DNA of 64,000 nucleotides from assembly GCA_964645795.1 (NCBI GenBank), contig CAZYCL010000001.1, positions 31,194 to 95,193 of the forward strand, in the 5' to 3' direction. The notes beneath the pieces were generated by a model. The model saw only the letters and a list, made by a program, of their open reading frames with translations. It did no database searches and had not been told where the DNA came from. Origin of the DNA: an uncultured Planctomycetales bacterium. Its GTDB lineage: Bacteria > Omnitrophota > Gorgyraeia > Gygaellales > Profunditerraquicolaceae. A program made the translations under genes and the position numbers. Below, in pieces: positions 3,568 to 52,596 of this stretch (within the stretch, counting starts at the first letter, position 1; every line of letters begins with the position of its first letter).

Positions 3568-4806
3568 TTAACCACCCCCCATTTTGGCGATCTGGAATAT
3601 GGGCAAAAACATACCCACAACCATGATGCCGATGACCGACCCCATAAATATAAGGATAAAAGGCTCAAACATCGAGACGAACCGGTTAAGGAAGGTCTCG
3701 GAATACTCCTGGTAAAAAGCGTTGATCTTCTTGAACATCTGCGAGAGCTCTCCGATCTCCTCTCCGATGCCCACCATCTGGACGACCATCGGGTCAAAGA
3801 ACCCGCTTTTTGAAAAAGGCTCGATCAGGGGCTTGCCTTCCCTTATCCCTTCCTTGATCTGGCGGATGATATCGGCCATGGCAAGATTTCCCACGCTATG
3901 CTCCGAGATCTCAAGCGAATAAAGGATAGGCACGCCGCTTTCCAGGAGCGTGGCCATCTCTGAAGAAAACCGCTCGACGGTAAGGGAGCGGAAGAACTCG
4001 CCGAATACCGGCAGCTTGAACTCCAAGCGCTCCAGCTGCTTTCTGCCTTCTTTTGTCTTGAGGAAGTTTTTCAGCAGGAACCCGAGTACTATTGCGCCGA
4101 ATATTAGCAGGATGAAGTTTTTGCGCAGAAAATCGCTGACGAATATCAAAACGACCGTGAGAGGCGGCAGTTGGATATTCATTCCCTTGAATATTTCGGC
4201 AAACGCCGGAACGATCTTGATGGTCATGAACAACATCGCGCCCAAGCTGGCTAACAACAGGATCGCCGGATATATGAGCGATGAGATTATCTTGGCCTTG
4301 AAGGCGGCGTTCCTCTCAAGATAGCCGGCCAGGCGGTTTAAGACTACCGCCAGGTTCCCGCTGGCCTCACCGCTTTCCACCAGATTAATCCAGAGCTCCG
4401 AGAAGACATCGCGGTGCCTGGCCATAGCCTCATGAAAACTAAGGCCGGTTTCCATGCCTTTCTGCAAATCCTTGACCACTAAATAGAGCTTGCGGCTGGA
4501 AACCTGCTGAGAGATTATATCCAGGCTCTTTAAGATGGTAACTCCGGCTCCCAACAGAGTGGCAAGCTGACGGCAAAAAAGGACCAGATCGTTGCCTGTG
4601 ACGCGGCTATGTCCGCGCTTATGCCTTGAGCTGAAATCCGCTGCGGCCTTAGAGGGCTTAACTTCGTCCTGGGCGGAAGTAACGCTTACCACGACCAAGT
4701 CCCTGGACTGAAGCCTGCTGATGACCTCTTCCTGGCTGGCGGCCTCTTCAGTGCCGGTGCTTTTCTCGCCTGTCTTGCTGCGGACCGTATAAAAGAACTT
4801 GGCCAT
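3568..4806 (-). CDS. pilC: Type IV pilus inner-membrane platform protein PilC (GspF family)
   Basis: 412 aa with two T2SSF-like repeats and three TM segments. It lies between pilB and the pilin genes. Confidence 0.85.
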   Translation of the reverse strand: MAKFFYTVRSKTGEKSTGTEEAASQEEVISRLQSRDLVVVSVTSAQDEVKPSKAAADFSSRHKRGHSRVTGNDLVLFCRQLATLLGAGVTILKSLDIISQQVSSRKLYLVVKDLQKGMETGLSFHEAMARHRDVFSELWINLVESGEASGNLAVVLNRLAGYLERNAAFKAKIISSLIYPAILLLASLGAMLFMTIKIVPAFAEIFKGMNIQLPPLTVVLIFVSDFLRKNFILLIFGAIVLGFLLKNFLKTKEGRKQLERLEFKLPVFGEFFRSLTVERFSSEMATLLESGVPILYSLEISEHSVGNLAMADIIRQIKEGIREGKPLIEPFSKSGFFDPMVVQMVGIGEEIGELSQMFKKINAFYQEYSETFLNRFVSMFEPFILIFMGSVIGIMVVGMFLPIFQIAKMGGG

Positions 4807-32778: not shown

Positions 32779-33099
32779 TTAAAGGTTCTCTTCGATCTTG
32801 CGCTTAAGCTCCTCACGGCTCAAGGCCCCCACCGCCTGATCCATGACCTTGCCGTTCTTAAAGAACATAAGCGTAGGGATAGACATAATCCCGTAATCGG
32901 TAGCGGTCTGAGGGTTGTTATCCACGTCGATCTTGCCGATCTTCACCTTGCCGGCATACTCATTGGCCAGCTCCTCTACTATCGGGGCGATCATCTTGCA
33001 CGGCCCGCACCAGGCAGCCCAGAAATCTACGACTACCGGTTGCTTGGAGACAATGACCTCCTCTTTAAAATTTGCATCGCTAAAATGTTGTAAGCTCAT
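32779..33099 (-). CDS. trxA: Thioredoxin (start likely MSLQHF)
   Basis: WAAWCGPCK active site. Confidence 0.9.
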
Positions 33100-33216
33100 A
33101 CTCCCTTCCTTATTTGGATTAAATTTGGGTAGGCAATTTTCTAAAATATCATAAAGAAGCGCGAATTGCAAGGGATTTCACTCTTTCGGGCGCATGCCGC
33201 GGGAAAACAGGAAGGT

Positions 33217-33624
33217 TTACTTCTTATTGGTATTTGAGGAGACCTCAAAAGACAGCTTTGTGAAATCTCCTTTATTATTGGCTATCTTAAAGGAGTTCTT
33301 GGAGAAGGTCCCGTCTTTATTGGCGATGGTGAAGGAGTTCTTGGAGAAGGTCCCGTCGTTATTGACTATGGAAAAGGAGTTCCGGGAAAACTCTCCTTTG
33401 GTATCGGCTATGGTAAACGAATTCTTGGAAAACTCGTTGGTGCCGGATTTAACCGAAAAGGAAGGCTTTAGCGATATCGAAGGCTTGACTGAAAAGGAAG
33501 GCTTGACCGAAAAAGATAATTCGGTAAACTCTCCCGTGGCAAAAGCCGCTGCCCCTGATAGCCATAAAATCAGCGCTGTGAATATGAGAAAAGAGAGGAA
33601 TTTGCCCATAGTTAAAGATATCAC
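33217..33624 (-). CDS. Secreted tandem-repeat protein (signal peptide, PSFSVK x3, then a 14-aa unit G-x-FSKNSFxIAN-x-D x4)
   Basis: Signal peptide with an AFA-TGE cleavage site. There is a 42-bp DNA-level tandem repeat. The antisense ORF lacks a signal peptide and would be the lone plus-strand gene here. Confidence 0.5.
   Translation of the reverse strand: MISLTMGKFLSFLIFTALILWLSGAAAFATGEFTELSFSVKPSFSVKPSISLKPSFSVKSGTNEFSKNSFTIADTKGEFSRNSFSIVNNDGTFSKNSFTIANKDGTFSKNSFKIANNKGDFTKLSFEVSSNTNKK
33245..33420. repeat. 42-bp tandem repeat array (about 4 units) encoding the 14-aa protein repeat
   Basis: Units at 33290-33331 and 33332-33373 are near-identical. Flanking units are degenerate. Confidence 0.7.
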
Positions 33625-33658
33625 GCCAAGACAAAAATTGCAACATTCTTTGAGGATT

Positions 33659-33695
33659 GGGGACGGTTCTGGGACCTGTCCCCGGAACCGTCCCC
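33659..33695. repeat. GC-rich 11-bp perfect inverted repeat (GGGGACGGTTC ... GAACCGTCCCC) with a nested sub-hairpin
   Basis: It lies between the propeller-protein stop and the repeat-protein start. No U-tract follows it. Confidence 0.5.
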
Positions 33696-33699
33696 GATC

Positions 33700-35292
33700 C
33701 TAATTCTTGATGGAGCTGGAGAAGTAGCCGCCGGTCATGGCGTCAAGCAGGGCGGTCAGCTCCCGTATCCCCAACTCCTTATCAAGCCGTTTTTTCCTAT
33801 CCTCTATCGGCAGATTCAAAAGTTCGATCTTACGCCTGATCCTTTCAAAATATATCTTGGTCACTTCATCAAGGATGTCCTCGCGTAACTGCACCATGAG
33901 CCGCGACCGTGTATCTATTGAGGTCTGGTCGTTATTCCAGATGATATCTCCCAACTCCCAACTTATGGCTATATCCCAATCGACGCTTTCTTTTCCGCGC
34001 CTTAGCAGATCGTCTTCGCCCTTGGTAGTCGATCCCGTCTCCCAATGCCAAAGGTCCGTTGTGTTTCGGTCCAACCCGACACTTAAACGCGGCAGCAATG
34101 CTTTTCGGCAAGCCTGCCTCCTCCATTTAGCGATCTTCTCCGGCTCAACTTCCGCATATTTCATGGCGGCCCTGTGCACCTCATTTATAGACGGCTCTCC
34201 CTGACAATAAAACTCCAGCGCCGAATATTCGTGCATCGTATCAGCAAAGCTGCGGCTTGCGAAAAACAACCCTTGATCCGTAGCCAGATATATACCTGAG
34301 GCCTCATCAAAAGCTATCGCGTTATACTTCTTAGACATCACTTCGATTGATAACTCCTGCCACCGGTCAGATATGAACATGAATACACCGGATCCCGAAA
34401 GGCTGTAAAGGACACCCTGTTTGGATATTGCAAGAGCCTTAATATCCCGCGAAAGCAATCCTCTCATTGTCAAGCCTTCCCAGCTTTCTGCGCCGTTCTG
34501 AGTAAAATACAGTCCCCTGTTCGTGGCTAAATATAAAAACCCGGGCAAGAACGGATGTTGCGATATCGCAGTTATGCCGAAAGAACCGTCTTTTTCCATA
34601 TCGATATCGCCGTCGTAGTTGTCCTCGATCTCTACAGCGTCATTTTCAGCTGCAGATGATGCAAAGAATACCTTTATGGGCCCAAAGCCTGCTTCCTGAG
34701 AAATGCTGAAAACCCCTTCACGGCTTGCCACAAACACTTGTTTTCGCAAACGGGAAGAAACGCATATATCGATTATCGGGGATTCTCCAAGGGCTCCTTC
34801 GATCCTCCTCCAATGCCTGCCTTCATTCAAGCTCACGAACAATCCTGCCCGCGTGCCTAAATAAAGCCTGCCTTCGCAAGAAGCGAATGCGGTCGCGCTC
34901 TGCCGGGGGGTCCAGCCGCCCCTGAATATCCTCTTCCATGAATCTCCCCGGTCAGAGGTAACGAATATGCCTTTTTCGCTGGCCGCGTAAATTTTTTCTG
35001 CGCCGGGTCCGGGTTCGACCAGCAACCTGATAAACCCGCCAGGCGATCTGCTGCGCAAAGAGATATCCCATGTTTTTCCCCGGTCTATGCTCTTATATAC
35101 TCCGTCTTCGCAGCCGATATAAAGGTCATCTTGACCGGTCAAAAGCACTGATTTTACCCCGTTTTTTACGGTGAATACCCTCTTCCACTCAATCTCCTCA
35201 GACAACCCGCTTTTTACAGAAAAAATACCCGATGATATCAAAAACGCAACAAACGTCAAAACCCCGGATAAACGCATATTTCCTCCTTTCAA
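33700..35292 (-). CDS. Secreted BNR/Asp-box-like beta-propeller protein with a C-terminal helical domain
   Basis: It has a signal peptide and repeated S-x-D-x-G-x-(T/S)-W-like motifs (SIDRGKTWD, TSDRGDSW, SLNEGRHW, TQNGAESW). Confidence 0.55.
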   Translation of the reverse strand: MKGGNMRLSGVLTFVAFLISSGIFSVKSGLSEEIEWKRVFTVKNGVKSVLLTGQDDLYIGCEDGVYKSIDRGKTWDISLRSRSPGGFIRLLVEPGPGAEKIYAASEKGIFVTSDRGDSWKRIFRGGWTPRQSATAFASCEGRLYLGTRAGLFVSLNEGRHWRRIEGALGESPIIDICVSSRLRKQVFVASREGVFSISQEAGFGPIKVFFASSAAENDAVEIEDNYDGDIDMEKDGSFGITAISQHPFLPGFLYLATNRGLYFTQNGAESWEGLTMRGLLSRDIKALAISKQGVLYSLSGSGVFMFISDRWQELSIEVMSKKYNAIAFDEASGIYLATDQGLFFASRSFADTMHEYSALEFYCQGEPSINEVHRAAMKYAEVEPEKIAKWRRQACRKALLPRLSVGLDRNTTDLWHWETGSTTKGEDDLLRRGKESVDWDIAISWELGDIIWNNDQTSIDTRSRLMVQLREDILDEVTKIYFERIRRKIELLNLPIEDRKKRLDKELGIRELTALLDAMTGGYFSSSIKN

Positions 35293-35326
35293 CGGTAATT
35301 GACGGAAATACGCGGTATTTCTAACA

Positions 35327-35355
35327 TAAAAACCTTCGTTTGCACGAAGGTTTTT
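35327..35355 (-). terminator. Bidirectional rho-independent terminator (CCTTCG-TTTGCA-CGAAGG flanked by A and T runs)
   Basis: A perfect 6-bp GC-containing stem with U-tracts on both strands. It lies directly downstream of the CHAT gene. Confidence 0.7.
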
Positions 35356-35391
35356 ACGGGTCTTTTGACCTTGATACCGGCTAAAAAGCTT

Positions 35392-37593
35392 CTATTCTAA
35401 GCCGGAAATATCTCTGTTGAACTGCTCTTGGTCGTAATCTTCGTTTGCCTTGTAGATCTCATAGGCCTTGCGCAGAAAATCAAGAGCCTTTGGTTTATCC
35501 AAAATCTTTTTATATAACAGCCCGAGGTTTCGATAGGCAACTGCCAACTCCGGTTGCGCGCCTATCTCTTTACTGATATTAACACTGGTAATAAACGAGC
35601 TTTGCGCATCTTCATGCCTGTCCATTTCGACATAAAGCTCGCCCAGCATGTTATAGTCGCTTGCCAGGCTTAATCTGTTGTTATGCAACAGATCGGTTTG
35701 CAGGCCCTTTTTATAGTAATCCAGGGCTTTTTGATACTGCTTCTCAAACAAGTAAATCTCTCCGATGTTAAAATAGCAATCGCTCAGCTCTGCCTTAAGG
35801 TTGGTCTTCTCAAAAATATCGAGGCTTTTCAAATAGAAGTGTTTGGCCGCTTCAAAATCTTCCTTGTTGGAGAACAAAAGACCCATATCGAAATAGTCAC
35901 AGGCGAGATTATACCTGTGCTCGTAGATCCTCTGCCTTTCGCGATTTATTTCAGAGCTTTTAGTAAGCAACTCGATGGCCCCGGCATAATCCTTCTTATC
36001 TATGTATAAAACGGCCGTCTTCCTTAGCGCTATTGCCTCGCCAAGCTTATCGCTTATCTGCCGGCTTAGTTTTAGGGCCTTCTCATAAAACTCGAGCGCT
36101 TTTTTAAGCTGCCCTTCGCCGTGGTAGAACCATCCGATAGAGGCATAGGCTCTTGAAAGGTCGGTGATGCTGTTCTCTTTTTCACTTTGCAGCGCGTAGC
36201 GGTAGTAATTTTGTATCGCCTCCTGCTTATTCCCAACCCTCCTGTAAGCCTGGGCCAAAACTGGATAAACCGCCAGGTATCCGGGGTCAGAAGTTGAGGC
36301 TCTTTTTAATACTTCAATCGCCGCCTGATTATCCCCCCGTAAATATGAAGCCTTGCCTTTAAGAAAGAAATAATAACTTGTCGGCTTCAAAGTGGGCGTC
36401 TTGACAAAAATATACGAGCCCAGGGCAATTATGCACATCGAAACAAAGATCGCCGCCATAATCTTAGGCTTAAGATGCATTTTCTTCTTTTCGGGGAAAG
36501 CCACACGCTTGTTCCTGACCTTAAGCAGTATGAAATTCGGGTCTCCGTATAGAACATAACTTGCCCAGGCGATATTGGATAAGCCATACTCCCGGCATAG
36601 CTTCAGGCGGGCCAAACGCATGCTCTCGCCTACGGACCTGCCGATGACCAAATGGTGATAAAACTCCCTGGCAAAGCTTAAGCTCGACTCATCGTCAAGC
36701 CTGCGTATTGAACCGATATAGTGCCTGACTCCGGAAAATAAGAATGCCGAAGCCAGGCTGTAATTTTTCTCCCTGAAGCTTGCCCGCGTCAGGTCAAGTT
36801 CGTTTTTAGCGGAATAACAGGCGTTTGAAAAAACAAGGCTGGGCAGCGGCGCGCTTTGGCCGAGTAGCGTTATGTCGTGCGAGGTAAACCTTCCATCCTT
36901 TAATAACCATCCGGTATTATCGGGCTTATTGAAATCATATTCGCAATGTCCGGCGAAATGCACGACATCGTAATCGCATATGGCTTTTTTGACAAACAGC
37001 CTGTCTACCGAAGACGATTTTAAATCGATATGGATGTTTGATCGTTTTGCGTCAAACTGGTCGCGGATATCTACTCCTTCCAGGTAAGATGATTTGAGGT
37101 CGCCGGTAGGGTCGGCCAATATCAGCATCCTCATCACATCCGAGAAACTCCTGACCCCCGAAGAATAGACCTGCTGCGTGGTCCTTATTGACCTGCCCAG
37201 GTTATACTTTAAACAGATGAAATTGTCACCGTCATAAAGCAGCTCCCAGGGCAGGTTTACCAGCCCCTCATCCACCAAAAGCACCAGATTCTGGTTTAAC
37301 TGTCCGGCCAATTTTTCCTTGATCGAGCGCGGTAACAGATGCTCCCAAAGAAACTGGCCGCTTTTTTTCAGCCCTTTGAGGAATACCGGATCGGGGTCTT
37401 TGCTGCGGTTGACCTTATTTACTAAAGCCGAAATTTCGCGGCAGACTATATCCAGCTCGACAAATGATACCTTGTGACGGTTGTAGTATCTGACGGTAGA
37501 AACGGCCTTTTCTTCACCGTACAATCCGACCGAAAGACAATCCTCCTGCCTGGCAATCTCGAGAAACTGCGTCTTCTCTGCTCTATCCTGCAT
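35392..37593 (-). CDS. CHAT-domain (caspase-like) protease with a central TM helix and C-terminal TPR repeats
   Basis: 733 aa. VVHFAGHCEY and LVFSNACYSA are the CHAT His/Cys dyad motifs. A TM helix (IMAAIFVSMCIIALGSYIFV) and ~8 TPR units follow. Confidence 0.8.
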   Translation of the reverse strand: MQDRAEKTQFLEIARQEDCLSVGLYGEEKAVSTVRYYNRHKVSFVELDIVCREISALVNKVNRSKDPDPVFLKGLKKSGQFLWEHLLPRSIKEKLAGQLNQNLVLLVDEGLVNLPWELLYDGDNFICLKYNLGRSIRTTQQVYSSGVRSFSDVMRMLILADPTGDLKSSYLEGVDIRDQFDAKRSNIHIDLKSSSVDRLFVKKAICDYDVVHFAGHCEYDFNKPDNTGWLLKDGRFTSHDITLLGQSAPLPSLVFSNACYSAKNELDLTRASFREKNYSLASAFLFSGVRHYIGSIRRLDDESSLSFAREFYHHLVIGRSVGESMRLARLKLCREYGLSNIAWASYVLYGDPNFILLKVRNKRVAFPEKKKMHLKPKIMAAIFVSMCIIALGSYIFVKTPTLKPTSYYFFLKGKASYLRGDNQAAIEVLKRASTSDPGYLAVYPVLAQAYRRVGNKQEAIQNYYRYALQSEKENSITDLSRAYASIGWFYHGEGQLKKALEFYEKALKLSRQISDKLGEAIALRKTAVLYIDKKDYAGAIELLTKSSEINRERQRIYEHRYNLACDYFDMGLLFSNKEDFEAAKHFYLKSLDIFEKTNLKAELSDCYFNIGEIYLFEKQYQKALDYYKKGLQTDLLHNNRLSLASDYNMLGELYVEMDRHEDAQSSFITSVNISKEIGAQPELAVAYRNLGLLYKKILDKPKALDFLRKAYEIYKANEDYDQEQFNRDISGLE

Positions 37594-37598
37594 AGACC

Positions 37599-38306
37599 TT
37601 AGGCATTGATATCCAGGGCCACAAAGGCGATCTTTTCTTTGACCTCGGATATCTCTATCCGGTACTTTCCCAGCAGCATATTCTCGAAAGTCACGATACC
37701 GGCGCTTGATACATACGACTCCAACTCCCTGTCTTCCCTGAAAAGACTGACCCTGACGTCCTTGACCGCTTTATGAGTGCCTTTTTTCTTAATTACAACC
37801 GTGCAATCGAAGCGTTTTCCGGGCTTATTCGAGATCTTGACCTCGATAACCACATCCCTGAAATCCTTTAGGATAGTGACCTCATCCTTAAAATCCTTGA
37901 TCTGCCTGGAGCGCAACAGGACAGCGGCAACCAACTCCTGACCGACAAGGACTTCTCCGGTTGTATTAATGACCTCGATCATCCTTTCTTTGACCTTCAA
38001 AAGAATCTTCAGGGCCTGGCTGATAGCCTGTGCACCAAACTTTTCTCTTAGCATCCTAAGCGCTTCATCGGGAACGCTCTCTTCAGGCCCGACAGCTCCC
38101 GCCCTAATATCAAAGGCAAGCCTTTGAGCGCAGATCCTGCAACTCAAGATGTGCCTCTCAAACACCTCCTCCTGCCTTTCATTGAGCTTCCCGTCTAAAT
38201 AGCAACAGAAGGCTTCCTCTGCGGGATGAGAATCGCCTACGCCGGATTCGCTTCCCGGAAAATCCGCCAGAAGCCTTTTGATGAAAATGTCGATTTTCTC
38301 AGTCAT
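37599..38306 (-). CDS. Putative zinc-finger (ZAS, H-x3-C-x2-C) anti-sigma factor, no TM segment
   Basis: 235 aa with the HILSCRICAQ motif. It lies immediately downstream of an ECF sigma gene. Confidence 0.55.
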   Translation of the reverse strand: MTEKIDIFIKRLLADFPGSESGVGDSHPAEEAFCCYLDGKLNERQEEVFERHILSCRICAQRLAFDIRAGAVGPEESVPDEALRMLREKFGAQAISQALKILLKVKERMIEVINTTGEVLVGQELVAAVLLRSRQIKDFKDEVTILKDFRDVVIEVKISNKPGKRFDCTVVIKKKGTHKAVKDVRVSLFREDRELESYVSSAGIVTFENMLLGKYRIEISEVKEKIAFVALDINA

Positions 38307-38338
38307 GTTTTGGCTCCTTACTAATAGACGAAATAATC

Positions 38339-38947
38339 TTAAATATCTAACATAAATCCTTTGCTTTTAAAACACTGCCTTAGCTTGTTAACAATGCGGT
38401 TTTTTTGCATATCTACGGCCCCCCTGGAGGCCTTAAATATATCTTGCAACAAAGCCAGGCTTATGCCTTGATTGATGTGCAATTCAATAAAATAGCGCTC
38501 CTGTGGAGTCAGTGACCGCAGGCAGTCTTTTAAGCCGTCAAGTAATTCAGCCCGGCTTGCGGCATCGTAAGCAGAGACGGAGCCGGCATCGGCTATCTTG
38601 TCGCCTAAAACCGAGCCCCGGCTATCCTCATGATCCAGGGAAATGCTCATTTTTCGCGCCCGGACAAAATCGACGGTAAAGTGGATAGTAACTACCCTGA
38701 GCCAGGTGGCAAGCGAAGAGCCATTTTTGGCCTTGAAAGATTTTAATTTGCGGCAACCGTCTTTAAATAACAGGCAGAATATATCGTTGAATACTTCGTT
38801 AACCAGGTCTCTTGGCACAGGAACAGCGGACTTTTGGAAAACAGTTAGAATGTAGTTATATATAAGGCGGGAGTAACGGGAAATGAATTCTTCTAAGGAG
38901 TGTTTATCGCCGTTGGAGCAGCTCTGGATTAACTCCAGATCGTCCAT
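38339..38947 (-). CDS. ECF-type RNA polymerase sigma factor (sigma-70 regions 2 and 4)
   Basis: 202 aa. A region 2 pattern is present. Region 4 is LTPQERYFIELHINQGISLALLQDIFKASRGAVDMQKNRIVNKLRQCF. Confidence 0.75.
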   Translation of the reverse strand: MDDLELIQSCSNGDKHSLEEFISRYSRLIYNYILTVFQKSAVPVPRDLVNEVFNDIFCLLFKDGCRKLKSFKAKNGSSLATWLRVVTIHFTVDFVRARKMSISLDHEDSRGSVLGDKIADAGSVSAYDAASRAELLDGLKDCLRSLTPQERYFIELHINQGISLALLQDIFKASRGAVDMQKNRIVNKLRQCFKSKGFMLDI

Positions 38948-39024
38948 AATGAGATAATTATAGCATCTTTACTGAAGAAAACTAACAAAAAACGAGGGTT
39001 AATATAAGGATAAGGCGGCAGGGC

Positions 39025-40731
39025 TTACTTGCCGAATACCTCTTTTAGGATGGTGCGGGCGGCGTTTTCGGCAATCAGCCTGTTGCCTTTATCCGTGCAG
39101 TGGCCGAAGACGCCTGCGAACATATCCCTAAAGTATTCTTTTGAAGGGCTTTCCCTAAGGGCATCTTTAAATACCTGTTCGTTGTCCACAAAGACAACCC
39201 CGTCTTCCCTGCCCCGAAAGATGCTCTTTAGGGGGACCAAACTGCGCACAGGATACTGCATACACACCAGCCTGATCCCCCTCTCATCGCAGGCCCGCTT
39301 AAGGCTAAGGTAATTATCGGAGGTCATTTTATCGTAATACATCGTTGTTTTACGGGCTGACCTCTTCTCATATTGTTCGGCCAGCTCAGGCTTTTTCATA
39401 TCTCTATAGAGCCCGGATATCAAAAGCAGCAGCCACCTGTCGTTCGAATTCAGCCCCAATGCTTTCTGCAAAAATAACTCTGCCTCAAGGAACCTGCCTT
39501 GAAACCTGAGGACCTCCCCCATCCTCATATGCCCTTCATACCTTTCGGGGTCCATTGCTATCAGCTTCCTGAACAAGGTTTCGGCTTGCGCCGGATCCCC
39601 CCTGGACAAATAACAGCATCCCATATCCAAATTTCCTTGATAGTCCCCGGGGTTCAACCACGCTGCTTTCGCCAGTGCAGCATCGGCTTCACTGCGTTTA
39701 ATTAAAGATTTCGTATAAAGACTCTTGGCTTTTGCTAAATTACCCGCATCCTTCTCAAGCAAATGCTCATCATCCAGGATAATAGCCTGTTCGTTGCAGG
39801 CCAACGTGAGATTAATGAATGCGAGATAATTATCCGGCTCTAACTCCGCAGCCTTTCTATAGGCTTGCTCTGCCTGGCCAAAATCTCCGTATCGTATATA
39901 AAATTCACCCAATTTCATATATGAATCAAAAACCGGCTCTGACTCTATTGGTTTCTTCAATTCGGCTTCAGCCTCGCGGATCCTGTTCATCAGGCAATAC
40001 AGATTCCCTAGTTCGGCATATCCTTCATAACGATTGGGCCATACTTCTATGGCCTTCTTCAATGCGGCTTCGGCGGAAGAAAAATCCCCGCGATCGCGAT
40101 GGCCTCTGCATTCTTCCAGGTATTCATCGAAGCCCTTATCAGGAGCTTGCGGGCGACTTTCATCGTTGTGTTTACCGGGTTTCCTGCTTGACGAATAGGC
40201 ATATTGCGCATCTCTGAACTTGGCGGCAATGTGCATCTTAAGAAAGTTTAAGAGCCGGTATAGCTTAAGCGACATGTAAAAATGGCGGTCCCGGGAAGCA
40301 TCCGACAGATTAACGGGTATGTGCGGACCAAAGTCGTTTATCCCCATCATGACAACGATCATGTCCGGCTCATAATGGTCGAGGCTTGATTGCAAGGATT
40401 GCACTATGCGCAGGGAGTTAGCGCCACTAATGCCCTTATCGATAACGCTGAATTTTATCCCGATATTGCTCTGATTGAGTATCTCTTCCAGGGGCCCCGG
40501 CCATTGTCCCTGGGTAGTGGATTCACCCAGGCACATGATACGGTAGGAGCCTTTTTGCCTAGAAGACCGAAGGTTCTTGTATTCCTGCAGTGAGACGATG
40601 AAAAATCCGGCCAGGCGCATCCCCGCCTCTACGATAATCAGAACAAGGATCAGCCCGAAGAATGACAAATATGCTTTCTGTCTTAAAGAAGTCCTGGCTT
40701 CGGTAGCCTTAGATGCAGTCATTTGGAACAA
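39025..40731 (-). CDS. Membrane-anchored SGNH/GDSL-hydrolase-like protein with central TPR repeats
   Basis: It has an N-terminal TM helix. RIMCLGESTT (GDS-like block I) and MMGINDF (block III-like) are present. TPR units lie between aa ~190 and 440. Confidence 0.5.
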   Translation of the reverse strand: MFQMTASKATEARTSLRQKAYLSFFGLILVLIIVEAGMRLAGFFIVSLQEYKNLRSSRQKGSYRIMCLGESTTQGQWPGPLEEILNQSNIGIKFSVIDKGISGANSLRIVQSLQSSLDHYEPDMIVVMMGINDFGPHIPVNLSDASRDRHFYMSLKLYRLLNFLKMHIAAKFRDAQYAYSSSRKPGKHNDESRPQAPDKGFDEYLEECRGHRDRGDFSSAEAALKKAIEVWPNRYEGYAELGNLYCLMNRIREAEAELKKPIESEPVFDSYMKLGEFYIRYGDFGQAEQAYRKAAELEPDNYLAFINLTLACNEQAIILDDEHLLEKDAGNLAKAKSLYTKSLIKRSEADAALAKAAWLNPGDYQGNLDMGCCYLSRGDPAQAETLFRKLIAMDPERYEGHMRMGEVLRFQGRFLEAELFLQKALGLNSNDRWLLLLISGLYRDMKKPELAEQYEKRSARKTTMYYDKMTSDNYLSLKRACDERGIRLVCMQYPVRSLVPLKSIFRGREDGVVFVDNEQVFKDALRESPSKEYFRDMFAGVFGHCTDKGNRLIAENAARTILKEVFGK

Positions 40732-46890: not shown

Positions 46891-49800
46891 TTACTGAAGG
46901 GGTTTTTCCCAGGCCGCGATATAACGCTTGGCCTGCTCTACATCCGGATCGTTCGGGGCAAGGGTTATATACTTCCTTAGGTGCATCAGCGCCCTGGTGC
47001 GGTCCTGCATCTGCTCGCCGTATAAAACTCCCAGGTTATAAAGCGCCTCGGCATCTTCCGGGTTAGCCAATAGCACCTTCTCAAACTCCGCAACTGCCTT
47101 CATGTAATCCCGGTTCTGGCTATAAAGGACGCCGAGGTTATAGTGAAGAGTGGCATTCTCCTTAAGGGCGCTGGTCTCCTTCATCAGCTTATACTCGTGC
47201 TCCAACAACCTATAAGCTTTATGCAACTGCTCGTAATCCGTCCTCATCTTCTTAATGGTATCGGAGAGCACCCTGTTCTGGCTTTCTGATTCCCTGGCCA
47301 GCTGGTTATACTCCTGCATGCGGCTATTCTTTTCCATCTGCGCGCCGTCCAACTCGCTCTTTAAGAACGCTGCCTTTTGCTGAAGGGCTTGGTTGGTCTC
47401 TTCAAGCGCCAGCCTCTTGTTCTCAAGGCTATCCTTCTGCTGATTTAACCAGCGCAGCGACTCCTGGGCGTTCTGCAGGTCCTTGCGTAACTTTTCCAGC
47501 TCGCTGCTTAAGCCAGCGGTGACCGCTTCCTTCTGGGCCTTTAACTGTATCATCTGGGTGTTCAGCGCTACATTCGACTCTTCTTTCTCCACCCGCAGCT
47601 TGGCTAACTCAGCGTTCAGGCGGTTTATCTCGGAATCTTTCTGGAGGAGGTTCTCGTCCTTCTGGGCCTGCAGTTCGTCAAGCTCCTGTGCGCGCATAGC
47701 CTTGAATTGCGAAAGGGTCTCCTTAGCCTGTGCGGCCTCCCTCTGGAGAGCGGCGACCTGCTGATTCAGGCTCAATAGCTGGTTATTGGAGTCCTGCTTC
47801 TGACGGGTCATCTCGACTATTTGCGCCTGAAGGGCGACCACCTGATCGGATAACTTAGCATACTCCTTGCGCAGCGACTCTTCCTGTATGGCCGTAGTCT
47901 GGAACCTGCGTTCGGCATCGCTTGAGCGCTTCTCCAGCTCTATGAACTTATCCATCAGCTCTTTCTTTTCCCTTGCCCAGCCCTCGCCTGTCCTTGATAA
48001 ACCCGAAAGCTTGTCTTCCGCGGTCTTTGCTGCATACTGCAGGACCTGGGCCTGAGTTTCCAGGGCAAGCTTCTGATTCTCTAAATCCTTGATCGTTGCC
48101 AGCAGGTCGCGCTTCTCTCCTTCAACATCGTCTTTCTGCCGGCTGTATTGAAGCATGGAATCCTGCATATCCTGGACCGCTTTCTGATAACGCGCGATCT
48201 CCGAAGTAAATCCGGCGGCCTCCGCATCTCTCTGCTGCTTTAGTTGATTGAGCTGGGTGAGGAGATTGGTAACATCCTCTTGCCTCTTTGCCTTAATCTC
48301 ATCGCGCTGCTGCCGCAGCTGCGCCAGTTCGTCCTCACGCTGCTGTAGCCTGCCTGCCAGCCTCTCCAGCTCCTGATCCTTCTGCTTCTTCGTATCGTCC
48401 AGACGGCTCTTTAGGATAGCCGACTCTTCCTTCTTCTGGCCCCTAAGCTGCACAAGCTGCTCATTGAAGAACTCCTGGGTGCTCTGAAGGTCTTTCTGCA
48501 TCTGGGCGTTTTCCGCAGCCAGCGCCTTCAAATCGGCTTCTCTGCGCTCAGCCAACAGCTGCATCTGGGCTTTCAGCTGGGTTATCTCCTGTTCCTTCTC
48601 GGCGTACTGCTGGGCCTTTTCCTGCTTGGCTGCTGCCAGCTCCTGGCTTAGGATATCCAACTGCCCCTGCGTTTCCTGAAGGCTTGCGACTATGTCGCCC
48701 TTTTCTTTTTCAGCCGCTTTAAGCTGCTCGACCAATACGCTTACCTGCTGATTCAAATCCTGGCCCTGCTTATCCAGGCCCGCCTTCTGATCACACAGCT
48801 CCTGGTGTTTAACCATCAGCTGACGGTAGTTATTATCGATATCGTTCTTTTCGTTGTTAAGCTGGCTGAGTAATTCGGTCTTCTCCTTGACGTCTTTGCG
48901 CAGCTTGAATATCTCCTCGTTGAGGTCCCTGAGCATTGTTTCTTTCTGGCTGTTGAACTGTGCCAGCTCGGCGTCACGCTGCTTCTCTAATGCTGCGATA
49001 TCGCCGTCCCTCTTTTCTCGCGCAAGGCTTACCTGTTCCTTAAGCTCTGTGATCAGGGCCTCGCTCTGAAGGCGCAAGTTTGCCAGGTCCTGCTCGATCC
49101 TTGCCTTGGCGTCGCCGGTCCTTACCATCTCCTGATTAAGCTTCTCTATCTGCTTCTGCCTGTCGTTCAATAGAGTCTGGAACTCCTGCTCTTTCTGGCT
49201 GCCGGAACGCGAAAGCTGCTCATTACGTTTAGTGATATCCGCGAAATCCTTTTCCAGCTGCGCGAGCCTGGTTTTCAAGGCCAGGTTTTCCTGCTGCACT
49301 GAGTCTTTTGACGAAGAAACGGTGTTGACCTTGGTTTCCGCGGCTATGAGCGCATCACGCAGGTCTTTGACCTGCTTCTCAAGCGTAGCTTTCTCGGGGA
49401 CAAGCTGCGCTATCCTGTTGTGCAGGGAAAGCTTCTCCTGTTGGCCGGATTCGTAGTTCGCGGAAACCGTCTTTATCTTCTCATCCGAAAGCTTAACCGC
49501 TTCCTGAAGCCCCTTGATTTGTTTTTCCAGAAGAGACTTCTCCTGTGCGAGGTTAGCTGCCTGGAGCCTGGTATCATCGAGCTCTTTCTGCTGCCTGATA
49601 AGCGAATCCCTTAAAGCCCTGGTATCGGACTCCTGACGGCTCTTTAGCTGCGCCAGCTCTTGGTCTTTCTGGGATTTGAGCTTAGCAAGCTCGAGCCCGA
49701 GCCTGGTCAAGTCCTGTTCTTTTTGCGCTCCTGACTGGACAAGCTGGTCGTGCCGCTTAAGGGCCTCGGAGAGCTGCCTATTCAGCTGCGACACCTTATC

Positions 49801-52596
49801 CTCTAACCCCAACTTCTCCTTAAGCGCTGATTCGTTGGCTTTGGAGATAGCGGTGAGCTTTGCCTGGCCTTCCTTCAGGGAGCTGCGGGTTTCCATTATC
49901 TGTTTCTCAAGGTCCGCCTTTTCGCGCTCCAGCCTTGCTGTCGTTTCCCGGCTGTCATTAAGTTGCCTGCGCGCCTTTGACAGGTCATCCTTTATTCCTT
50001 TTACTCCGGCTTCCATACCCTTCTTTAACCGCAGTAACTCATCGTCATGGGCAGATTTTAATCTTGCTATCTGATCAAGCAGGCGTGAAGCCTCGGTCTC
50101 CTTCTGATTCTTTAACTGCGCCAGCTCATTGCCCACTTTACCCAGCTCATTGGAAAGGGCTTCAATCTTCTTAGAACGCACTGCCAGTTCATCGGCCAGC
50201 TCTTTTTCGCTATTGCGGCTTAAAATCTTAAGATTCTCCTGGTCCCGGCGCAGCCCTTCGATGGTCGTCTTCTGCACTTCAAGCAGCAAATTAAGCTCTT
50301 GTTCTTTCTTGGCGGCCCTGGATACCAGGTCTTCATTGCGCTTTAGCGCATCGGCAAGATTGCTTTCTGCCTGCGTAAGCTTGCCTTGCAAGGCGGATTT
50401 CTCCTGGTTGGCGGCCTCTTTGGCATTAGAAAGCATGCCCGCGTTGTCTTCGGACTCCTTTAGCGCGCCCTTAAGGTCGCCGATAGCCTTCTCTGCCCTG
50501 CCCTTTTCCTGCGTAAGCTGCGCGTTTGCCTGCCGCAGCTGGTTTATATCATTGCGTAAACCGGCGATCTCGTCTTTGAGCTTAGCGGACTGGGCATCAA
50601 AGCCGGAATTAAGCTTAAGCAGATCCTCGTCCCTCTTGGACTTAAGCTTGGCTATCTGATCAAGCAGCCCCGATACCTCGGAGTCCTTCTGGATCTTTAG
50701 CTGTGAATAATCTTTCTGGGAACGCTGCAACGACTCCCTGGTATTGGCCAACTCGCGGCGCAGCTCGTCAAACTCTTTGCCGGACTTCTGCGATTCCAGA
50801 GCCAGCGAGTCCTTCTGCCGGATAAGCTCGTTAAACCTGGACTGGGAATCGGCTAATTGGGTAGATACCTTCCTGAGGTCATCCTGTAAAGACTGGCGTT
50901 CCCGGGAAGATGTTTCAGACTGTTTCTGGGCTTGCTGCAGCTTATTGTTTAGATCGGCTATTTCCCTGCGCAGTGATGAATTCTCCTGGCTGAGGGCATC
51001 GTTGGTCCTATTGAAACCGGCCATTTTCTCTTCCAAGGGTTTCATCGAAGATTTCAATGACTGGACTTGTTTTTCCAAAGAAGACTTCTGGCCTTCAAGC
51101 TCCCTGATACTGGCGTTAAGCTGCGACTGCAGTTTCTCAGAAACGTCACGCTGCTGCACGGCCTTGACCAGGGCGTCCTTAGCTGAATCCAGATCTCTCT
51201 TTACAGCCGACAGCTCTGCACCCATATTTTTGGATTCTGAGGCGAGCCTATTCTTTAACGAATCGATCTCCTGTCGAAGCTGGCTGGCAAGTGATTCTTT
51301 TTGCGCGCTAAGACTGGCGTTTTCCTCTCTTGCCCTGGCCAGATCTTCCTTATATTGGGATTCTAACTGGGAGTACTTGCGGCCAGAATCCTGGTCCTGT
51401 TTCTCAAGCCTGGCCTTTTGCTCGGAAAGGTCCTTTAGCCGCAGCGTCAACTCTCTCTGCTGCACATCCTGATACTCCTTATCTTTTTTAATCCGGGCAA
51501 GCTCATCCTGCGCATCCCTTAAGCCCTTACGCAGGGCCAATACCTCTTCCTCTGATTTCTGAAGCTGGCTTGATCTTTGTTCCCTGATTTTAACCTGCTC
51601 CCGTTCATGCTGCTGCTTTAACTGCTGCACTTCCTGCTCTTTTTGGCCCTTCAGCTGGGTAAACAACGCAGTTAACTCATCCAACTGCTTCTTCGTCTTT
51701 AAAAGCTCTTCTTTAGACTGGGAGCCGGATTTATTAGCCGCATCCAGCTGTTGCCTAAGCTCGGCTATTTGATTGCGAAGCTCCTGAGAAAGCTGTCCGG
51801 ACTCCTGGTCCTTCTGGCTTTTTATCTTGGCGATCTCATCAAGAAGGCGGCCAGACTCATCCTCCTTCTCTTTTGCCAGCTGGTCATTGCGGTCTCTCAA
51901 CCGCCCTATCTCCTGGCTAAGAAGCTCTACTTGATTGCGCGCCTGCATCAAGGAAGAGTTAAGCGCATCGTTATCCCTTAAGGCAGCCAGCCCCCTGCTT
52001 TCCTTGGCGTCGATATCCTGTTTTAAGGCGCTGTTCTGGTCCTCAAGGCTGCGCGCTCTCTGGGCCAGCTCCTGGAGCTGGCCATTGAGGCCGGAGACCT
52101 CATTCTGCAGGAGATTGACGCTATCCTGGAGCTGGCGCTTCTCCTGGCTGCCGGCTTCGATGATCTTGTTTAATTCGGGAAGCTTCTGCTCAAACTCATT
52201 TAACGCGTCTTTTAAATTCTTGTTTTGCTGGGAGAGACTTTCGTTCTTTTGCTCAAGGCTGCGCATGGAAACTGCCAGGTCCCGATTTTCAGAGACGGCT
52301 GAGCCGGTATAGCGCATGATCTGCGCCAAGGTATCTAACGCCCCTTCCAGCCCCTGCCTGATCCGGGACAGCTCTACACCGAGGCTTTGCAAAAGCACGC
52401 TGTCAGAGCCTCCGCTCGACTTCAAGGTCTGCTCAAGCAGGCTTATATCTTGGGCAACGGCTTTTAACTGGATAGCAAGCTTGGATTCATTTTTGGATGA
52501 TGAGGGTTGAGCGCAGCAATGACGGGGACAGACAAATACGGCGGGAATAAAAAATAGAGCAAAAAGAATAAAGTAGGGGGATTTCTTCATCAACAT
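46891..52596 (-). CDS. Giant secreted coiled-coil protein (1901 aa) with internal ~150-200 aa repeat modules and C-terminal TPR repeats
   Basis: It has an N-terminal hydrophobic signal and ~1750 aa of Q/E/K/L-rich heptads with a recurring LLDQIAKLKSQKDQE motif. The C-terminal TPR region is NATLHYNLGVLYSQ...AEALYNLGVLYGEQ. Confidence 0.8.
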   Translation of the reverse strand: MLMKKSPYFILFALFFIPAVFVCPRHCCAQPSSSKNESKLAIQLKAVAQDISLLEQTLKSSGGSDSVLLQSLGVELSRIRQGLEGALDTLAQIMRYTGSAVSENRDLAVSMRSLEQKNESLSQQNKNLKDALNEFEQKLPELNKIIEAGSQEKRQLQDSVNLLQNEVSGLNGQLQELAQRARSLEDQNSALKQDIDAKESRGLAALRDNDALNSSLMQARNQVELLSQEIGRLRDRNDQLAKEKEDESGRLLDEIAKIKSQKDQESGQLSQELRNQIAELRQQLDAANKSGSQSKEELLKTKKQLDELTALFTQLKGQKEQEVQQLKQQHEREQVKIREQRSSQLQKSEEEVLALRKGLRDAQDELARIKKDKEYQDVQQRELTLRLKDLSEQKARLEKQDQDSGRKYSQLESQYKEDLARAREENASLSAQKESLASQLRQEIDSLKNRLASESKNMGAELSAVKRDLDSAKDALVKAVQQRDVSEKLQSQLNASIRELEGQKSSLEKQVQSLKSSMKPLEEKMAGFNRTNDALSQENSSLRREIADLNNKLQQAQKQSETSSRERQSLQDDLRKVSTQLADSQSRFNELIRQKDSLALESQKSGKEFDELRRELANTRESLQRSQKDYSQLKIQKDSEVSGLLDQIAKLKSKRDEDLLKLNSGFDAQSAKLKDEIAGLRNDINQLRQANAQLTQEKGRAEKAIGDLKGALKESEDNAGMLSNAKEAANQEKSALQGKLTQAESNLADALKRNEDLVSRAAKKEQELNLLLEVQKTTIEGLRRDQENLKILSRNSEKELADELAVRSKKIEALSNELGKVGNELAQLKNQKETEASRLLDQIARLKSAHDDELLRLKKGMEAGVKGIKDDLSKARRQLNDSRETTARLEREKADLEKQIMETRSSLKEGQAKLTAISKANESALKEKLGLEDKVSQLNRQLSEALKRHDQLVQSGAQKEQDLTRLGLELAKLKSQKDQELAQLKSRQESDTRALRDSLIRQQKELDDTRLQAANLAQEKSLLEKQIKGLQEAVKLSDEKIKTVSANYESGQQEKLSLHNRIAQLVPEKATLEKQVKDLRDALIAAETKVNTVSSSKDSVQQENLALKTRLAQLEKDFADITKRNEQLSRSGSQKEQEFQTLLNDRQKQIEKLNQEMVRTGDAKARIEQDLANLRLQSEALITELKEQVSLAREKRDGDIAALEKQRDAELAQFNSQKETMLRDLNEEIFKLRKDVKEKTELLSQLNNEKNDIDNNYRQLMVKHQELCDQKAGLDKQGQDLNQQVSVLVEQLKAAEKEKGDIVASLQETQGQLDILSQELAAAKQEKAQQYAEKEQEITQLKAQMQLLAERREADLKALAAENAQMQKDLQSTQEFFNEQLVQLRGQKKEESAILKSRLDDTKKQKDQELERLAGRLQQREDELAQLRQQRDEIKAKRQEDVTNLLTQLNQLKQQRDAEAAGFTSEIARYQKAVQDMQDSMLQYSRQKDDVEGEKRDLLATIKDLENQKLALETQAQVLQYAAKTAEDKLSGLSRTGEGWAREKKELMDKFIELEKRSSDAERRFQTTAIQEESLRKEYAKLSDQVVALQAQIVEMTRQKQDSNNQLLSLNQQVAALQREAAQAKETLSQFKAMRAQELDELQAQKDENLLQKDSEINRLNAELAKLRVEKEESNVALNTQMIQLKAQKEAVTAGLSSELEKLRKDLQNAQESLRWLNQQKDSLENKRLALEETNQALQQKAAFLKSELDGAQMEKNSRMQEYNQLARESESQNRVLSDTIKKMRTDYEQLHKAYRLLEHEYKLMKETSALKENATLHYNLGVLYSQNRDYMKAVAEFEKVLLANPEDAEALYNLGVLYGEQMQDRTRALMHLRKYITLAPNDPDVEQAKRYIAAWEKPLQ

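Follow-up and report, generated by a model that had tools for sequence, protein, structure and literature searches.

Can a caspase-like protease anchored in the membrane release a sigma factor of the extracytoplasmic function (ECF) type by acting directly on a soluble anti-sigma factor? The question is raised by three adjacent genes on the minus strand of a 64,000-nucleotide stretch of contig CAZYCL010000001.1 (assembly GCA_964645795.1, positions 31,194 to 95,193), referred to here as the window, from an uncultured bacterium labelled Planctomycetales and placed by GTDB in the phylum Omnitrophota. The genes encode an ECF sigma factor (202 aa), an anti-sigma factor of the zinc-binding anti-sigma (ZAS) type without a transmembrane (TM) segment (235 aa), and a 733-aa protein with the domain order CHAT-TM-TPR. 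This trio had been described in an initial annotation of the DNA, with coordinates that proved exact (Table 1). On balance we lean towards the view that the trio is a three-protein transmembrane switch, in which the protease would cut, or dock on, the soluble anti-sigma factor and so free the sigma factor.

ECF sigma factors are among the main routes for passing information across the bacterial membrane. The known ways of controlling them comprise regulated intramembrane proteolysis (RIP) of transmembrane anti-sigma factors, conformational or redox sensing, partner switching, phosphorylation, and C-terminal extensions. If the proposed switch is real, a membrane-anchored caspase-like protease that cuts a soluble anti-sigma factor would constitute a distinct and simpler ECF mechanism.

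A conserved sigma, anti-sigma and CHAT trio

The distribution of the trio was assessed by scanning one genome per species in GTDB with the 733-aa protein. Relatives are encoded in 320 species-level genomes, from which the best 80 loci (L001–L080) were taken; open reading frames (ORFs) were called in these loci and then searched with the window proteins. The best 120 homologs of the 733-aa protein are ~705–743 aa long and match over their full length with 49–60% identity. Their named sources are almost always Candidatus Omnitrophota/Omnitrophica, with one labelled Margulisiibacteriota. The labels of the best 80 loci are likewise almost all Omnitrophota, and the few that read Planctomycetales, Margulisiibacteriota or Patescibacteria may be mislabelled. 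As no other protein is more than 60% identical to those of the window, the lineage of the window is divergent. The 80 loci come from 80 different assemblies, one locus in each, at a uniform ~46–53% identity, and on these sequences the distribution is apparently vertical and phylum-wide.

The three genes are syntenic throughout the loci with enough DNA. A sigma factor ortholog (median identity 46%) lies directly upstream on the same strand in all 77 loci with enough upstream DNA, with E values of 1e-41 to 1e-64. The same holds for an anti-sigma ortholog in 78 of 78 loci with enough DNA (E 1e-40 to 1e-63, and 3e-15 for one truncated copy). Loci without the sigma and anti-sigma genes are only those that begin at the CHAT gene. 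Of the 78 loci with an anti-sigma gene, 77 have it directly after the sigma gene; in the remaining one, L029, the DNA upstream is too short. The gaps between sigma and anti-sigma genes and between anti-sigma and CHAT genes are 32 and 5 nt in the window, with medians of 39 and 5 nt over the loci. The initial annotation had made its reading depend on synteny in related genomes, and the trio is kept in these loci and in eight of eight distant relatives besides. The annotation had also described an operon; the tight linkage stands, but a plain operon with a single promoter does not fit the conserved internal promoter-like motif described below.

The 202-aa protein belongs, by its sequence match, to the ECF (group 4) sigma-70 family. 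It scores 57.3 bits against a cutoff of 42.9 with NCBIfam TIGR02937 (sigma70-ECF) over aa 17–192, which upholds the ECF assignment made earlier, while the regions 2 and 4 assigned with it are detected by Pfam Sigma70_r2 and Sigma70_r4 below threshold in both cases. No NCBIfam equivalog or subfamily reaches its cutoff for this protein, the best being the BldN family at 46.6 against 206.

Upstream of the sigma gene, a −10-like hexamer stands 2–10 nt before the start in all 43 loci in which the start can be placed, and 6–9 nt before it in 40 of them. The hexamer is exactly TATAAT in 35 of the 43 and carries the TGn extension in 37. The 9-nt distance from TGcTATAAT to the ATG in the window, together with the lack of a Shine-Dalgarno sequence, points to a leaderless or near-leaderless mRNA. 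The anti-sigma and beta-propeller genes, whose promoters are discussed below, have strong AGGAGG sites, whereas the sigma gene has none. These sequence features make it probable that transcription of the sigma gene starts from a housekeeping-type promoter and yields a leaderless mRNA. Classical positive autoregulation of the sigma gene was considered and is unsupported, as the only promoter-like element upstream of it is the housekeeping-type TGnTATAAT, with no ECF-type motif.

The membrane-anchored CHAT protein

The 733-aa protein matches Pfam CHAT (PF12770) at aa 77–351, covering model positions 2–289 of 289 (E 8.2e-31; 107.9 bits against a cutoff of 24). The CHAT domain is followed by a single hydrophobic helix at aa ~378–397 (nt 36403–36462), which is kept among relatives in character but not in sequence, and by a TPR array at aa ~404–729 (nt 35407–36384; TPR_12, E 1.7e-37). 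Pfam and hydropathy agree on the order CHAT-TM-TPR, confirming the inversion relative to typical TPR-CHAT proteins that had been noticed from the DNA. No N-terminal hydrophobic segment or signal peptide was found in the protein.

The putative catalytic residues, assigned by motif and spacing, are H216 (nt 36946–36948) and C259 (nt 36817–36819). Two independent alignments, of 30 and 31 orthologs, show no variation at H212 and H216 (in HFAGHC) or at C259 (in FSNAC), so the intact His/Cys dyad read from the window sequence is a property of the family. The conservation of the His and Cys positions, which includes the deep variants described below, argues for catalysis, and the CHAT protein is likely to be catalytically competent.

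Across 30 orthologs, the 15 residues before the TM helix contain a mean of 5.7 Lys and Arg, against 1.4 in the 15 residues after it. By the positive-inside rule, this bias places the CHAT domain in the cytoplasm and the TPR array outside. The initial annotation had regarded a periplasmic CHAT domain as incompatible with its interpretation; the charge bias predicts the opposite, with the domain on the same side of the membrane as the soluble anti-sigma factor. An AlphaFold2 (AF2) model built on a 30-sequence alignment has high confidence in the TPR region and low confidence in the CHAT region. A Foldseek search with this model returned only TPR proteins, such as LGN/Pins and NprR, and no CHAT match.

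The zinc-binding anti-sigma factor

The 235-aa protein consists of a domain carrying H27, H52, C56 and C59, a variable linker (aa ~63–98), a conserved segment (aa 99–141), and an Ig-like beta-sandwich (aa 142–233). The zinc signature H27-x24-H52-x3-C56-x2-C59 is invariant in two alignments, of 34 and of 40 orthologs. The match to Pfam zf-HC2 falls just under the cutoff (21.9 bits against 22.2, E 1.9e-4), and a precomputed PF13490 match is present on some orthologs. No TM segment is found in the protein, and the maximum KD19 hydropathy averages 1.1 over the family, so that the earlier description of a TM-less protein with an H-x3-C-x2-C motif holds in both respects. By its zinc ligands, predicted helical domain and gene position, the protein is a canonical ZAS (class I) anti-sigma factor.

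Profile comparison with PDB sequences gave only marginal matches, including weak ones to the anti-sigma domains of DdvA and RsiW, and the beta-sandwich has a weak prealbumin-like (SpaA) match. The AF2 model begins with four helices at the N-terminus, after which come a linker of low confidence, a helix at aa 92–114, a low-confidence region at aa 108–137, and a confidently modelled beta-sandwich at aa 142–233. Residues 115–141 combine a major-residue frequency of 0.91, compared with 0.65 in the anti-sigma domain and 0.45 in the linker, with the lowest model confidence in the protein (pLDDT 41–47). A segment that is conserved yet unstructured is what would be expected where a conserved partner is met, and on this ground residues 115–141 are a candidate site for docking or cleavage by CHAT. 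A cut would be expected within aa ~110–141, and the invariant LRSR is one possible position for it.

The CHAT protein could also act without cutting the anti-sigma factor, either as a conformational scaffold working through the beta-sandwich or as a protease that acts on itself or on the sigma factor and releases a cytoplasmic fragment. Such a role would suit the generic Ig-like protein-binding module of the anti-sigma factor, and the CHAT model is too poor to define a substrate cleft. The myxobacterial CHAT protein DdvA, moreover, is proposed to cut itself in trans and not a separate substrate (PMC11506125). Two observations speak against this account. The dyad is invariant in the 30–31 aligned orthologs, with the Cys retained in 8/8 and the His in 7/8 of the distant variants. 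Furthermore, the linker between CHAT and the TM helix (aa 352–377) and that between sigma2 and sigma4 are both poorly conserved, and neither holds a conserved cleavage-like motif of the kind seen at residues 115–141 of the anti-sigma factor. We regard action without a cut to the anti-sigma factor as distinctly improbable.

Promoter-like motifs and the candidate regulon

A bipartite ECF-type motif, GTTAGA(TT)-N15-CGTCTA(TTA), occurs at two fixed places in the window. Motif A overlaps the last sigma codons and the spacer between the sigma and anti-sigma genes, and is present at the equivalent position in 74 of 77 loci. Motif B precedes a beta-propeller gene that follows the CHAT gene, at a distance of ~20 nt from the AGGAGG ribosome-binding site. 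It has an equivalent upstream of the beta-propeller ortholog in 44 of 48 loci, alike where the distance to the CHAT gene is 55 bp and where it is 3.4 kb. The spacer is 15 nt in 66 of 66 A sites and 39 of 42 B sites, and the consensus of the two is identical. Fixed spacing and a CGTC −10 element are typical of ECF promoters.

A pattern search for the motif gave two matches in the window against 0.23 expected, and a position weight matrix (PWM) recovered only sites A (score 30.7) and B (15.0) in the 64 kb, with none in shuffled sequences. At a PWM score of at least 18, there are 125 sites in 916 kb of loci, each of which either precedes a co-oriented gene or falls at a contig end. The −35 part of motif A is non-coding where the sigma gene ends earlier, which identifies the motif as a DNA signal and not a protein-coding feature; its origin as a by-product of the sigma C-terminus was ruled out, as it persists in non-coding DNA.

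The gene behind motif B encodes a Ycf48/BNR-like beta-propeller with matches to Sortilin-Vps10/BNR, F510_1955 and BNR proteins in the PDB. It has 815 homologs of ~520 aa, of which the taxon-named ones are from Omnitrophota and some are annotated 'YCF48-related'. The gene lies downstream of the trio on the same strand in 47 of the 80 loci, or 48 with one on the opposite strand. The exported Ycf48-like beta-propeller is the candidate output of the regulon.

A hairpin directly after the CHAT gene is followed by UUUUU on the minus strand. A and T tracts flank it, so terminator-like action is possible in both directions. What had been called a clean bidirectional terminator is, on inspection, a stable hairpin with a U-tract, but one that is specific to the window genome and not conserved. 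In 9 of 47 loci the next gene follows the CHAT gene at less than 150 nt, too short a distance to accommodate such a hairpin.

The motif is also found with mobile genes. In the form GTTAGA-N15-CGTCTATTA, it precedes RAYT/IS200-like Y1 transposase genes (160–226 aa; PF01797 in L081) in L003 at ~3616(−), L013, L038 at ~4469(−), L044 at ~4492(−), L060 at ~4508(−), L037 at ~233(−), L057 at ~8270(+) and L081 at 3694–4176(−). The RAYT-like genes stand divergent just upstream of the sigma gene, or downstream of the CHAT gene, in several genomes. In L075 (8434+), a GIY-YIG-like ORF of 87 aa also lies behind the motif. No RAYT-like gene is present among the ORFs at 24–48 kb of the window, the part searched for them. 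REP-like, hairpin-rich inserts of ~50–120 nt (e.g. AACTTATG...CATAAGTT) were seen directly after CGTCTATTAAG, between promoter B and the beta-propeller ribosome-binding site, in L032, L025, L021, L044, L017, L076, L037, L041, L048 and L075. As part of the 5' untranslated region, these inserts might represent REP elements connected with the RAYT genes nearby; alternatively, they might form a structured leader.

Proposed mechanism and its main rival

In the proposed switch, the sigma factor would be made constitutively from its leaderless mRNA behind the TGnTATAAT promoter and would be held inactive by the soluble zinc-binding anti-sigma factor. The CHAT-TM-TPR protein would be anchored in the inner membrane by its one helix, with the CHAT domain in the cytoplasm and the TPR superhelix in the periplasm. 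Binding of a signal, most likely a protein or peptide, to the outer domain would activate CHAT. The activated domain would then dock on or cut the anti-sigma factor at aa ~115–141, between the sigma-binding domain and the beta-sandwich, and the sigma factor would be freed. Free sigma factor would read GTTAGA-N15-CGTCTA, with motif B yielding the exported Ycf48-like beta-propeller as output, and motif A yielding fresh anti-sigma factor and protease as negative feedback and reset. Precedents are Craspase, whose cleavage of Csx30 releases an ECF-like sigma (PMC10028731), and CalpL, whose cleavage of CalpT releases CalpS (10.1101/2024.05.08.593097).

Several points weigh against this mechanism. 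The cytoplasmic position of CHAT is a prediction from the positive-inside rule. The catalytic region is poorly modelled, with pLDDT below 50 at aa 242–300, and in a profile search of PDB sequences the CHAT half matches solved CHAT structures marginally (E 0.016–0.76). It is from position and co-conservation alone that we infer reading of GTTAGA-N15-CGTCTA by the trio sigma factor, and the −35 element of this motif lacks the 'AAC' core common in ECF promoters. The occurrence of the same motif before RAYT-like transposase genes in several genomes lies outside what the model explains. Lastly, as the anti-sigma and CHAT genes stand behind motif A, CHAT is likely to be a regulon member too, and it may be a target of the sigma factor rather than, or as well as, its regulator.

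This last point leads to the main rival, in which the anti-sigma factor itself would sense a redox or other cytoplasmic cue through its zinc site or beta-sandwich, and CHAT would be a co-regulated output only. TM-less ZAS anti-sigma factors with directly sensing C-terminal domains are well known, RsrA and ChrR being examples. A soluble ZAS protein can sense directly, for instance by thiol oxidation, and 28 loci have a thioredoxin homolog no more than 6 kb from the trio, which could matter if the zinc anti-sigma factor is redox-sensitive. It has also been pointed out in work on ECF classification that genomic context alone cannot separate regulators from targets (PMC7826278). The coupling of anti-sigma and CHAT genes at a distance of 5 nt nevertheless speaks against direct sensing by the anti-sigma factor. 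So does the first zinc ligand, which is His in the main family; the resulting HHCC site presumably resembles the structural zinc site of ChrR more than the redox switch of RsrA. Further evidence on this question comes from distant relatives of the trio.

Distant variants with exchanged outer domains

The anti-sigma C-terminal module (aa 99–235) was searched exhaustively against 1.84 billion representative proteins and gave only 211 matches. Nearly all are 221–248 aa long with the module in the same place, and the exceptions are very long proteins that have only the sandwich, as repeats. Eight anti-sigma members of the same architecture but 26–34% identity (L081–L088) were chosen for a look-up of their genomic context. 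An ECF sigma factor and a CHAT protein adjoin the anti-sigma factor in all eight. Each of the eight CHAT partners has the Cys motif, and in each the CHAT domain is followed immediately by a TM helix whose N-terminal flank is rich in K/R. A His motif, HxxxH[GCAS], lies 43 residues upstream of the Cys in seven of them and is unmatched in L084. The distant anti-sigma factors that were read (L081–L084) keep HxxxCxxC and a TGD...P.P.LRS segment, with Cys in place of His as the first zinc ligand. The promoter motif occurs between the sigma and anti-sigma genes in 5/8 of these loci, and it co-varies with the system among them.

Around this core, the outer domain varies, being TPR or CsgG/LpoB-like, or occurring in a protein with an added cyclase-like domain. 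In L083 and L084, an adenylate/guanylate-cyclase-like domain stands N-terminal to CHAT and a CsgG/LpoB-like domain follows the TM helix. We know of no described sigma/anti-sigma trio whose CHAT protease is fused to a cyclase. L084, with a GC content of 63%, may come from outside Omnitrophota. On these comparisons, a constant core of sigma factor, anti-sigma factor and CHAT-TM with a swapped outer domain is the signature of modular-input signalling, and it provides the strongest argument for a signal that would pass via CHAT from the outer domain to the anti-sigma factor.

The genes downstream of the core vary as well. In L082 (6192–6834), L085 (5435–5879) and L087 (6827–10080), a downstream copy of the promoter precedes two to three small ORFs of 30–86 aa. 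These are followed by SIMPL (PF04402) and DUF3857 proteins, which replace the Ycf48-like beta-propeller. The different downstream genes of the distant variants indicate that the predicted regulon differs between lineages.

For the rival in which the anti-sigma factor senses its own cue, these variants are unfavourable. The CHAT neighbour is kept in 8/8 despite changed gene order, length and outer domains, as would fit a cognate partner better than one of many outputs. Other outputs vary by lineage, from the beta-propeller to small ORFs, SIMPL and DUF3857 proteins, and CHAT never does. In L087 the CHAT gene is upstream of the sigma gene and hence not behind motif A. Sensing by the anti-sigma factor with CHAT as a mere output is, in our judgement, unlikely, and the switch driven by CHAT is retained in what follows.

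Comparison with known systems

The initial annotation had named Craspase as the only described parallel. This was too narrow, since DdvA, CalpL-CalpT-CalpS and the ECF54 context also exist. As for its proposal of CHAT-to-sigma signalling, the dyad, synteny and predicted topology favour it, while the sole parallel and the plain operon fall away and proteolysis of the anti-sigma factor is an inference. A literature search on CHAT, ECF and anti-sigma factors returned CRISPR and DdvA papers only, and none was found that links Omnitrophota with sigma factors or with CHAT/caspase proteins.

In Craspase, a type III-E system, the complex of Cas7-11 and Csx29 (TPR-CHAT) cleaves Csx30, releasing CASP-sigma (PMC10028731). 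The trio resembles it in pairing a CHAT domain, predicted here to be cytoplasmic, with a soluble two-domain inhibitor of an ECF-like sigma factor, and Csx30 is cut in a flexible loop outside its sigma-binding domain. The spacing of the dyad is 43 residues in both (H615/C658 in Csx29 and H216/C259 here). However, Csx29 is activated by crRNA-guided target RNA via Cas7-11, whereas the window contains no CRISPR component, and Csx29 has TPR followed by CHAT with no TM helix, in contrast to CHAT-TM-TPR. No Csx30-like match to the anti-sigma factor appeared in searches of PDB or Pfam, which did not include a direct comparison with Csx30.

DdvA-DdvS of Myxococcus xanthus unites ZAS-TM-TPR-CHAT in one polypeptide with a periplasmic CHAT domain, for which site-1 self-cleavage before RseP is proposed; the island under its control is a CBASS/CRISPR one, and it is narrowly distributed, in Myxococcota (PMC11506125). 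The modules are the same as in the trio, namely an ECF sigma factor, a zinc anti-sigma domain, one TM helix, and TPR with a His-Cys CHAT domain, and by analogy CHAT would perform the proteolytic step that frees the sigma factor in both. Profile matches to DdvA are weak: 8rlz is matched by the anti-sigma factor (E 0.056), and 8rot by the anti-sigma factor (E 1.7) and the CHAT half (E 0.76). The systems differ in that the modules are split and inverted here, with the ZAS domain on a separate soluble protein that bears a beta-sandwich and with CHAT predicted in the cytoplasm. In addition, the trio would need no intramembrane step, is found throughout the sampled Omnitrophota, and sits in a housekeeping context.

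CalpL-CalpT-CalpS consists of a type III CRISPR SAVED-Lon protease, a soluble anti-sigma factor and a sigma factor that is ECF-like (10.1101/2024.05.08.593097, PMC11417357). It shares with the proposed switch a tripartite logic, in which a cytoplasmic protease is activated by a signal, a soluble anti-sigma factor is its substrate, and an ECF sigma factor is the output. Its protease, however, is of Lon type, responds to cyclic tetra-adenylate via SAVED and is CRISPR-linked, and is not a membrane-anchored CHAT protein with an outer sensor. In the actinobacterial ECF54 context, CHAT, subtilase and carboxypeptidase-regulatory-like proteins are encoded near the sigma factor and there is no anti-sigma factor (PMC8999054, PMC7826278). 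The association of an ECF sigma factor with CHAT proteins, which is bioinformatic, and the proposal of proteolytic control are common to both, and the SpaA match of the beta-sandwich recalls a carboxypeptidase-regulatory-like fold. Unlike ECF54, the trio has an invariant canonical ZAS anti-sigma factor, no subtilase, and hosts in Omnitrophota.

RIP, as in the DegS/RseP-RseA-sigmaE and PrsW/RasP-RsiW-sigmaW pathways, also leads from an outside signal through proteolysis of an anti-sigma factor to release of an ECF sigma factor. RIP anti-sigma factors span the membrane and need at least two sequential proteases, whereas the anti-sigma factor here is soluble. As it is the protease that spans the membrane in the trio, a single cut could suffice. 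Judged by gene content and domain order, the trio lacks the defining features of Craspase, DdvA, RIP and ECF54 systems.

Genomic context and the question of defence

The characterised CHAT or other protease systems that act via sigma and anti-sigma factors are all linked to defence (PMC11506125, PMC10028731, 10.1101/2024.05.08.593097). By this precedent, the outer TPR domain might detect a phage component and the sigma factor switch on immunity genes, in the manner of DdvA or Craspase. The surroundings of the trio argue otherwise. No tandem or CRISPR arrays and no Rfam CRISPR families were found in the 64-kb window, and the PADLOC defence HMMs gave no specific match there, only generic TPR matches; the window also has no cas gene, including Cas7-11, in agreement with the initial annotation. 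The neighbours of the trio are housekeeping genes (trx, pta, ackA, def, groES-like, nitroreductase and thioesterase), several of them syntenic across the phylum. Flanking genes common to the window and the Omnitrophota loci are those for thioredoxin, DRTGG-Pta, acetate kinase, 4HBT thioesterase and nitroreductase. The apparently vertical, phylum-wide spread is unlike that of a patchy defence island, and locally the motif has no targets other than the trio itself and the Ycf48-like beta-propeller. A defence island was ruled out on context, given the housekeeping neighbours and the absence of defence matches in the window, and we give very little credence to the trio as a phage sensor.

Significance

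A wider reading can be put forward tentatively, as one that falls a little short of probable. In it, the trio would represent an unrecognised signalling class, in which a single-pass CHAT protease with an exchangeable outer sensor destroys a dedicated soluble zinc anti-sigma factor in one step. The pathway would be a core, vertically inherited one of Omnitrophota, possibly for sensing of the envelope or of host contact, and would depend neither on CRISPR or phage defence nor on intramembrane proteolysis. Its presence in at least 320 species-level genomes, with one locus in each of 80 assemblies and a housekeeping neighbourhood, suggests that the trio is probably central to the biology of this phylum, which is almost entirely uncultured. 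If the reading is correct, the CHAT-to-sigma logic of Craspase and DdvA would be an older and general signalling design and not a speciality of defence. The protease and its substrate could also serve as an orthogonal proteolytic switch, and the predicted promoter motif, the output gene, the cleavage segment and the catalytic residues are all parts that can be tested heterologously.

Features of the locus and neighbouring genes

The features of the trio and of the distant CHAT partners are collected in Table 1.

Table 1. Features of the trio locus in the window (nt positions on the forward numbering) and CHAT partners of the distant variants (positions within each locus).
Feature	Position	Strand	Basis or remarks
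ECF-type sigma factor, 202 aa	38339–38947	−	TIGR02937; Pfam r2/r4 sub-threshold; ortholog directly upstream of anti-sigma
Extended −10 element, TGcTATAAT	38957–38965	−	9 nt upstream of sigma ATG; no Shine-Dalgarno sequence
Soluble ZAS anti-sigma factor, 235 aa	37599–38306	−	Predicted 4-helix anti-sigma domain, linker, conserved segment, Ig-like beta-sandwich
Codons of anti-sigma residues 115–141 (TTGEVLVGQELVAAVLLRSRQIKDFKD)	37884–37964	−	Top conservation, lowest pLDDT
CHAT-TM-TPR protein, 733 aa	35392–37593	−	Pfam CHAT, TPR_12; hydropathy; AF2
Motif A, GTTAGA (38351–38346), N15, CGTCTA (38330–38325)	38325–38351	−	Before anti-sigma/CHAT
Motif B, GTTAGA (35325–35320), N15, CGTCAA (35304–35299)	35299–35325	−	Before beta-propeller gene
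Hairpin and U-tract after CHAT gene	35327–35356	−	−20.1 kcal/mol, z −7.4
Ycf48/BNR-like beta-propeller, 525 aa from ATG 35277	33700–35277	−	Signal-peptide-like N-terminus, C-terminal extension
L081 CHAT partner, 733 aa			CHAT-TM-TPR
L082 CHAT partner, 873 aa			CHAT-TM-TPR
L083 CHAT partner, 910 aa	2060–4792	+	Guanylate_cyc-CHAT-TM-CsgG/LpoB-like
L084 CHAT partner, 1075 aa	1660–4887	+	Guanylate_cyc-CHAT-TM-TPR-CsgG-like; GC 0.63
L085 CHAT partner, 1246 aa			CHAT-TM-TPR
L086 CHAT partner, 732 aa			CHAT-TM-TPR
L087 CHAT partner, 766 aa			CHAT-TM-TPR; order permuted: CHAT, sigma, anti-sigma
L088 CHAT partner, at least 1499 aa			CHAT-TM-TPR

Upstream of the sigma gene lies a gene (39025–40731, minus strand) whose 568-aa product has a TPR array, an N-terminus that is GDSL-lipase-like, and a hydrophobic segment that is also N-terminal. 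This gene was ruled out as a member of the system, being next to the trio in only 2/80 loci. On the other side, a GC-rich hairpin with a 20-bp stem (33654–33700) lies directly 3' of the beta-propeller stop codon. It is followed by a 135-aa ORF (33217–33624, minus strand) with a signal-peptide-like N-terminus and degenerate repeats (FSKNSFTIANKDGT), which match 42-nt and 18-nt tandem repeats at 33275–33513. This ORF stands between the beta-propeller gene and the thioredoxin gene (32779–33171; PF00085, E 7e-36), which is downstream on the same strand as the trio.

No Rfam family reaches its gathering score in the 64 kb, with no tRNA, rRNA or riboswitch detected. The window has a GC content of ~49% and a steadily negative GC skew, and nearly all of its long ORFs are on the minus strand. 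Some Omnitrophota are noted for large proteins, and a 1901-aa ORF at 46891–52596 (minus strand) has weak SMC/JetC/LmuB-like coiled-coil matches in PADLOC, the best with an E value of 1e-9.

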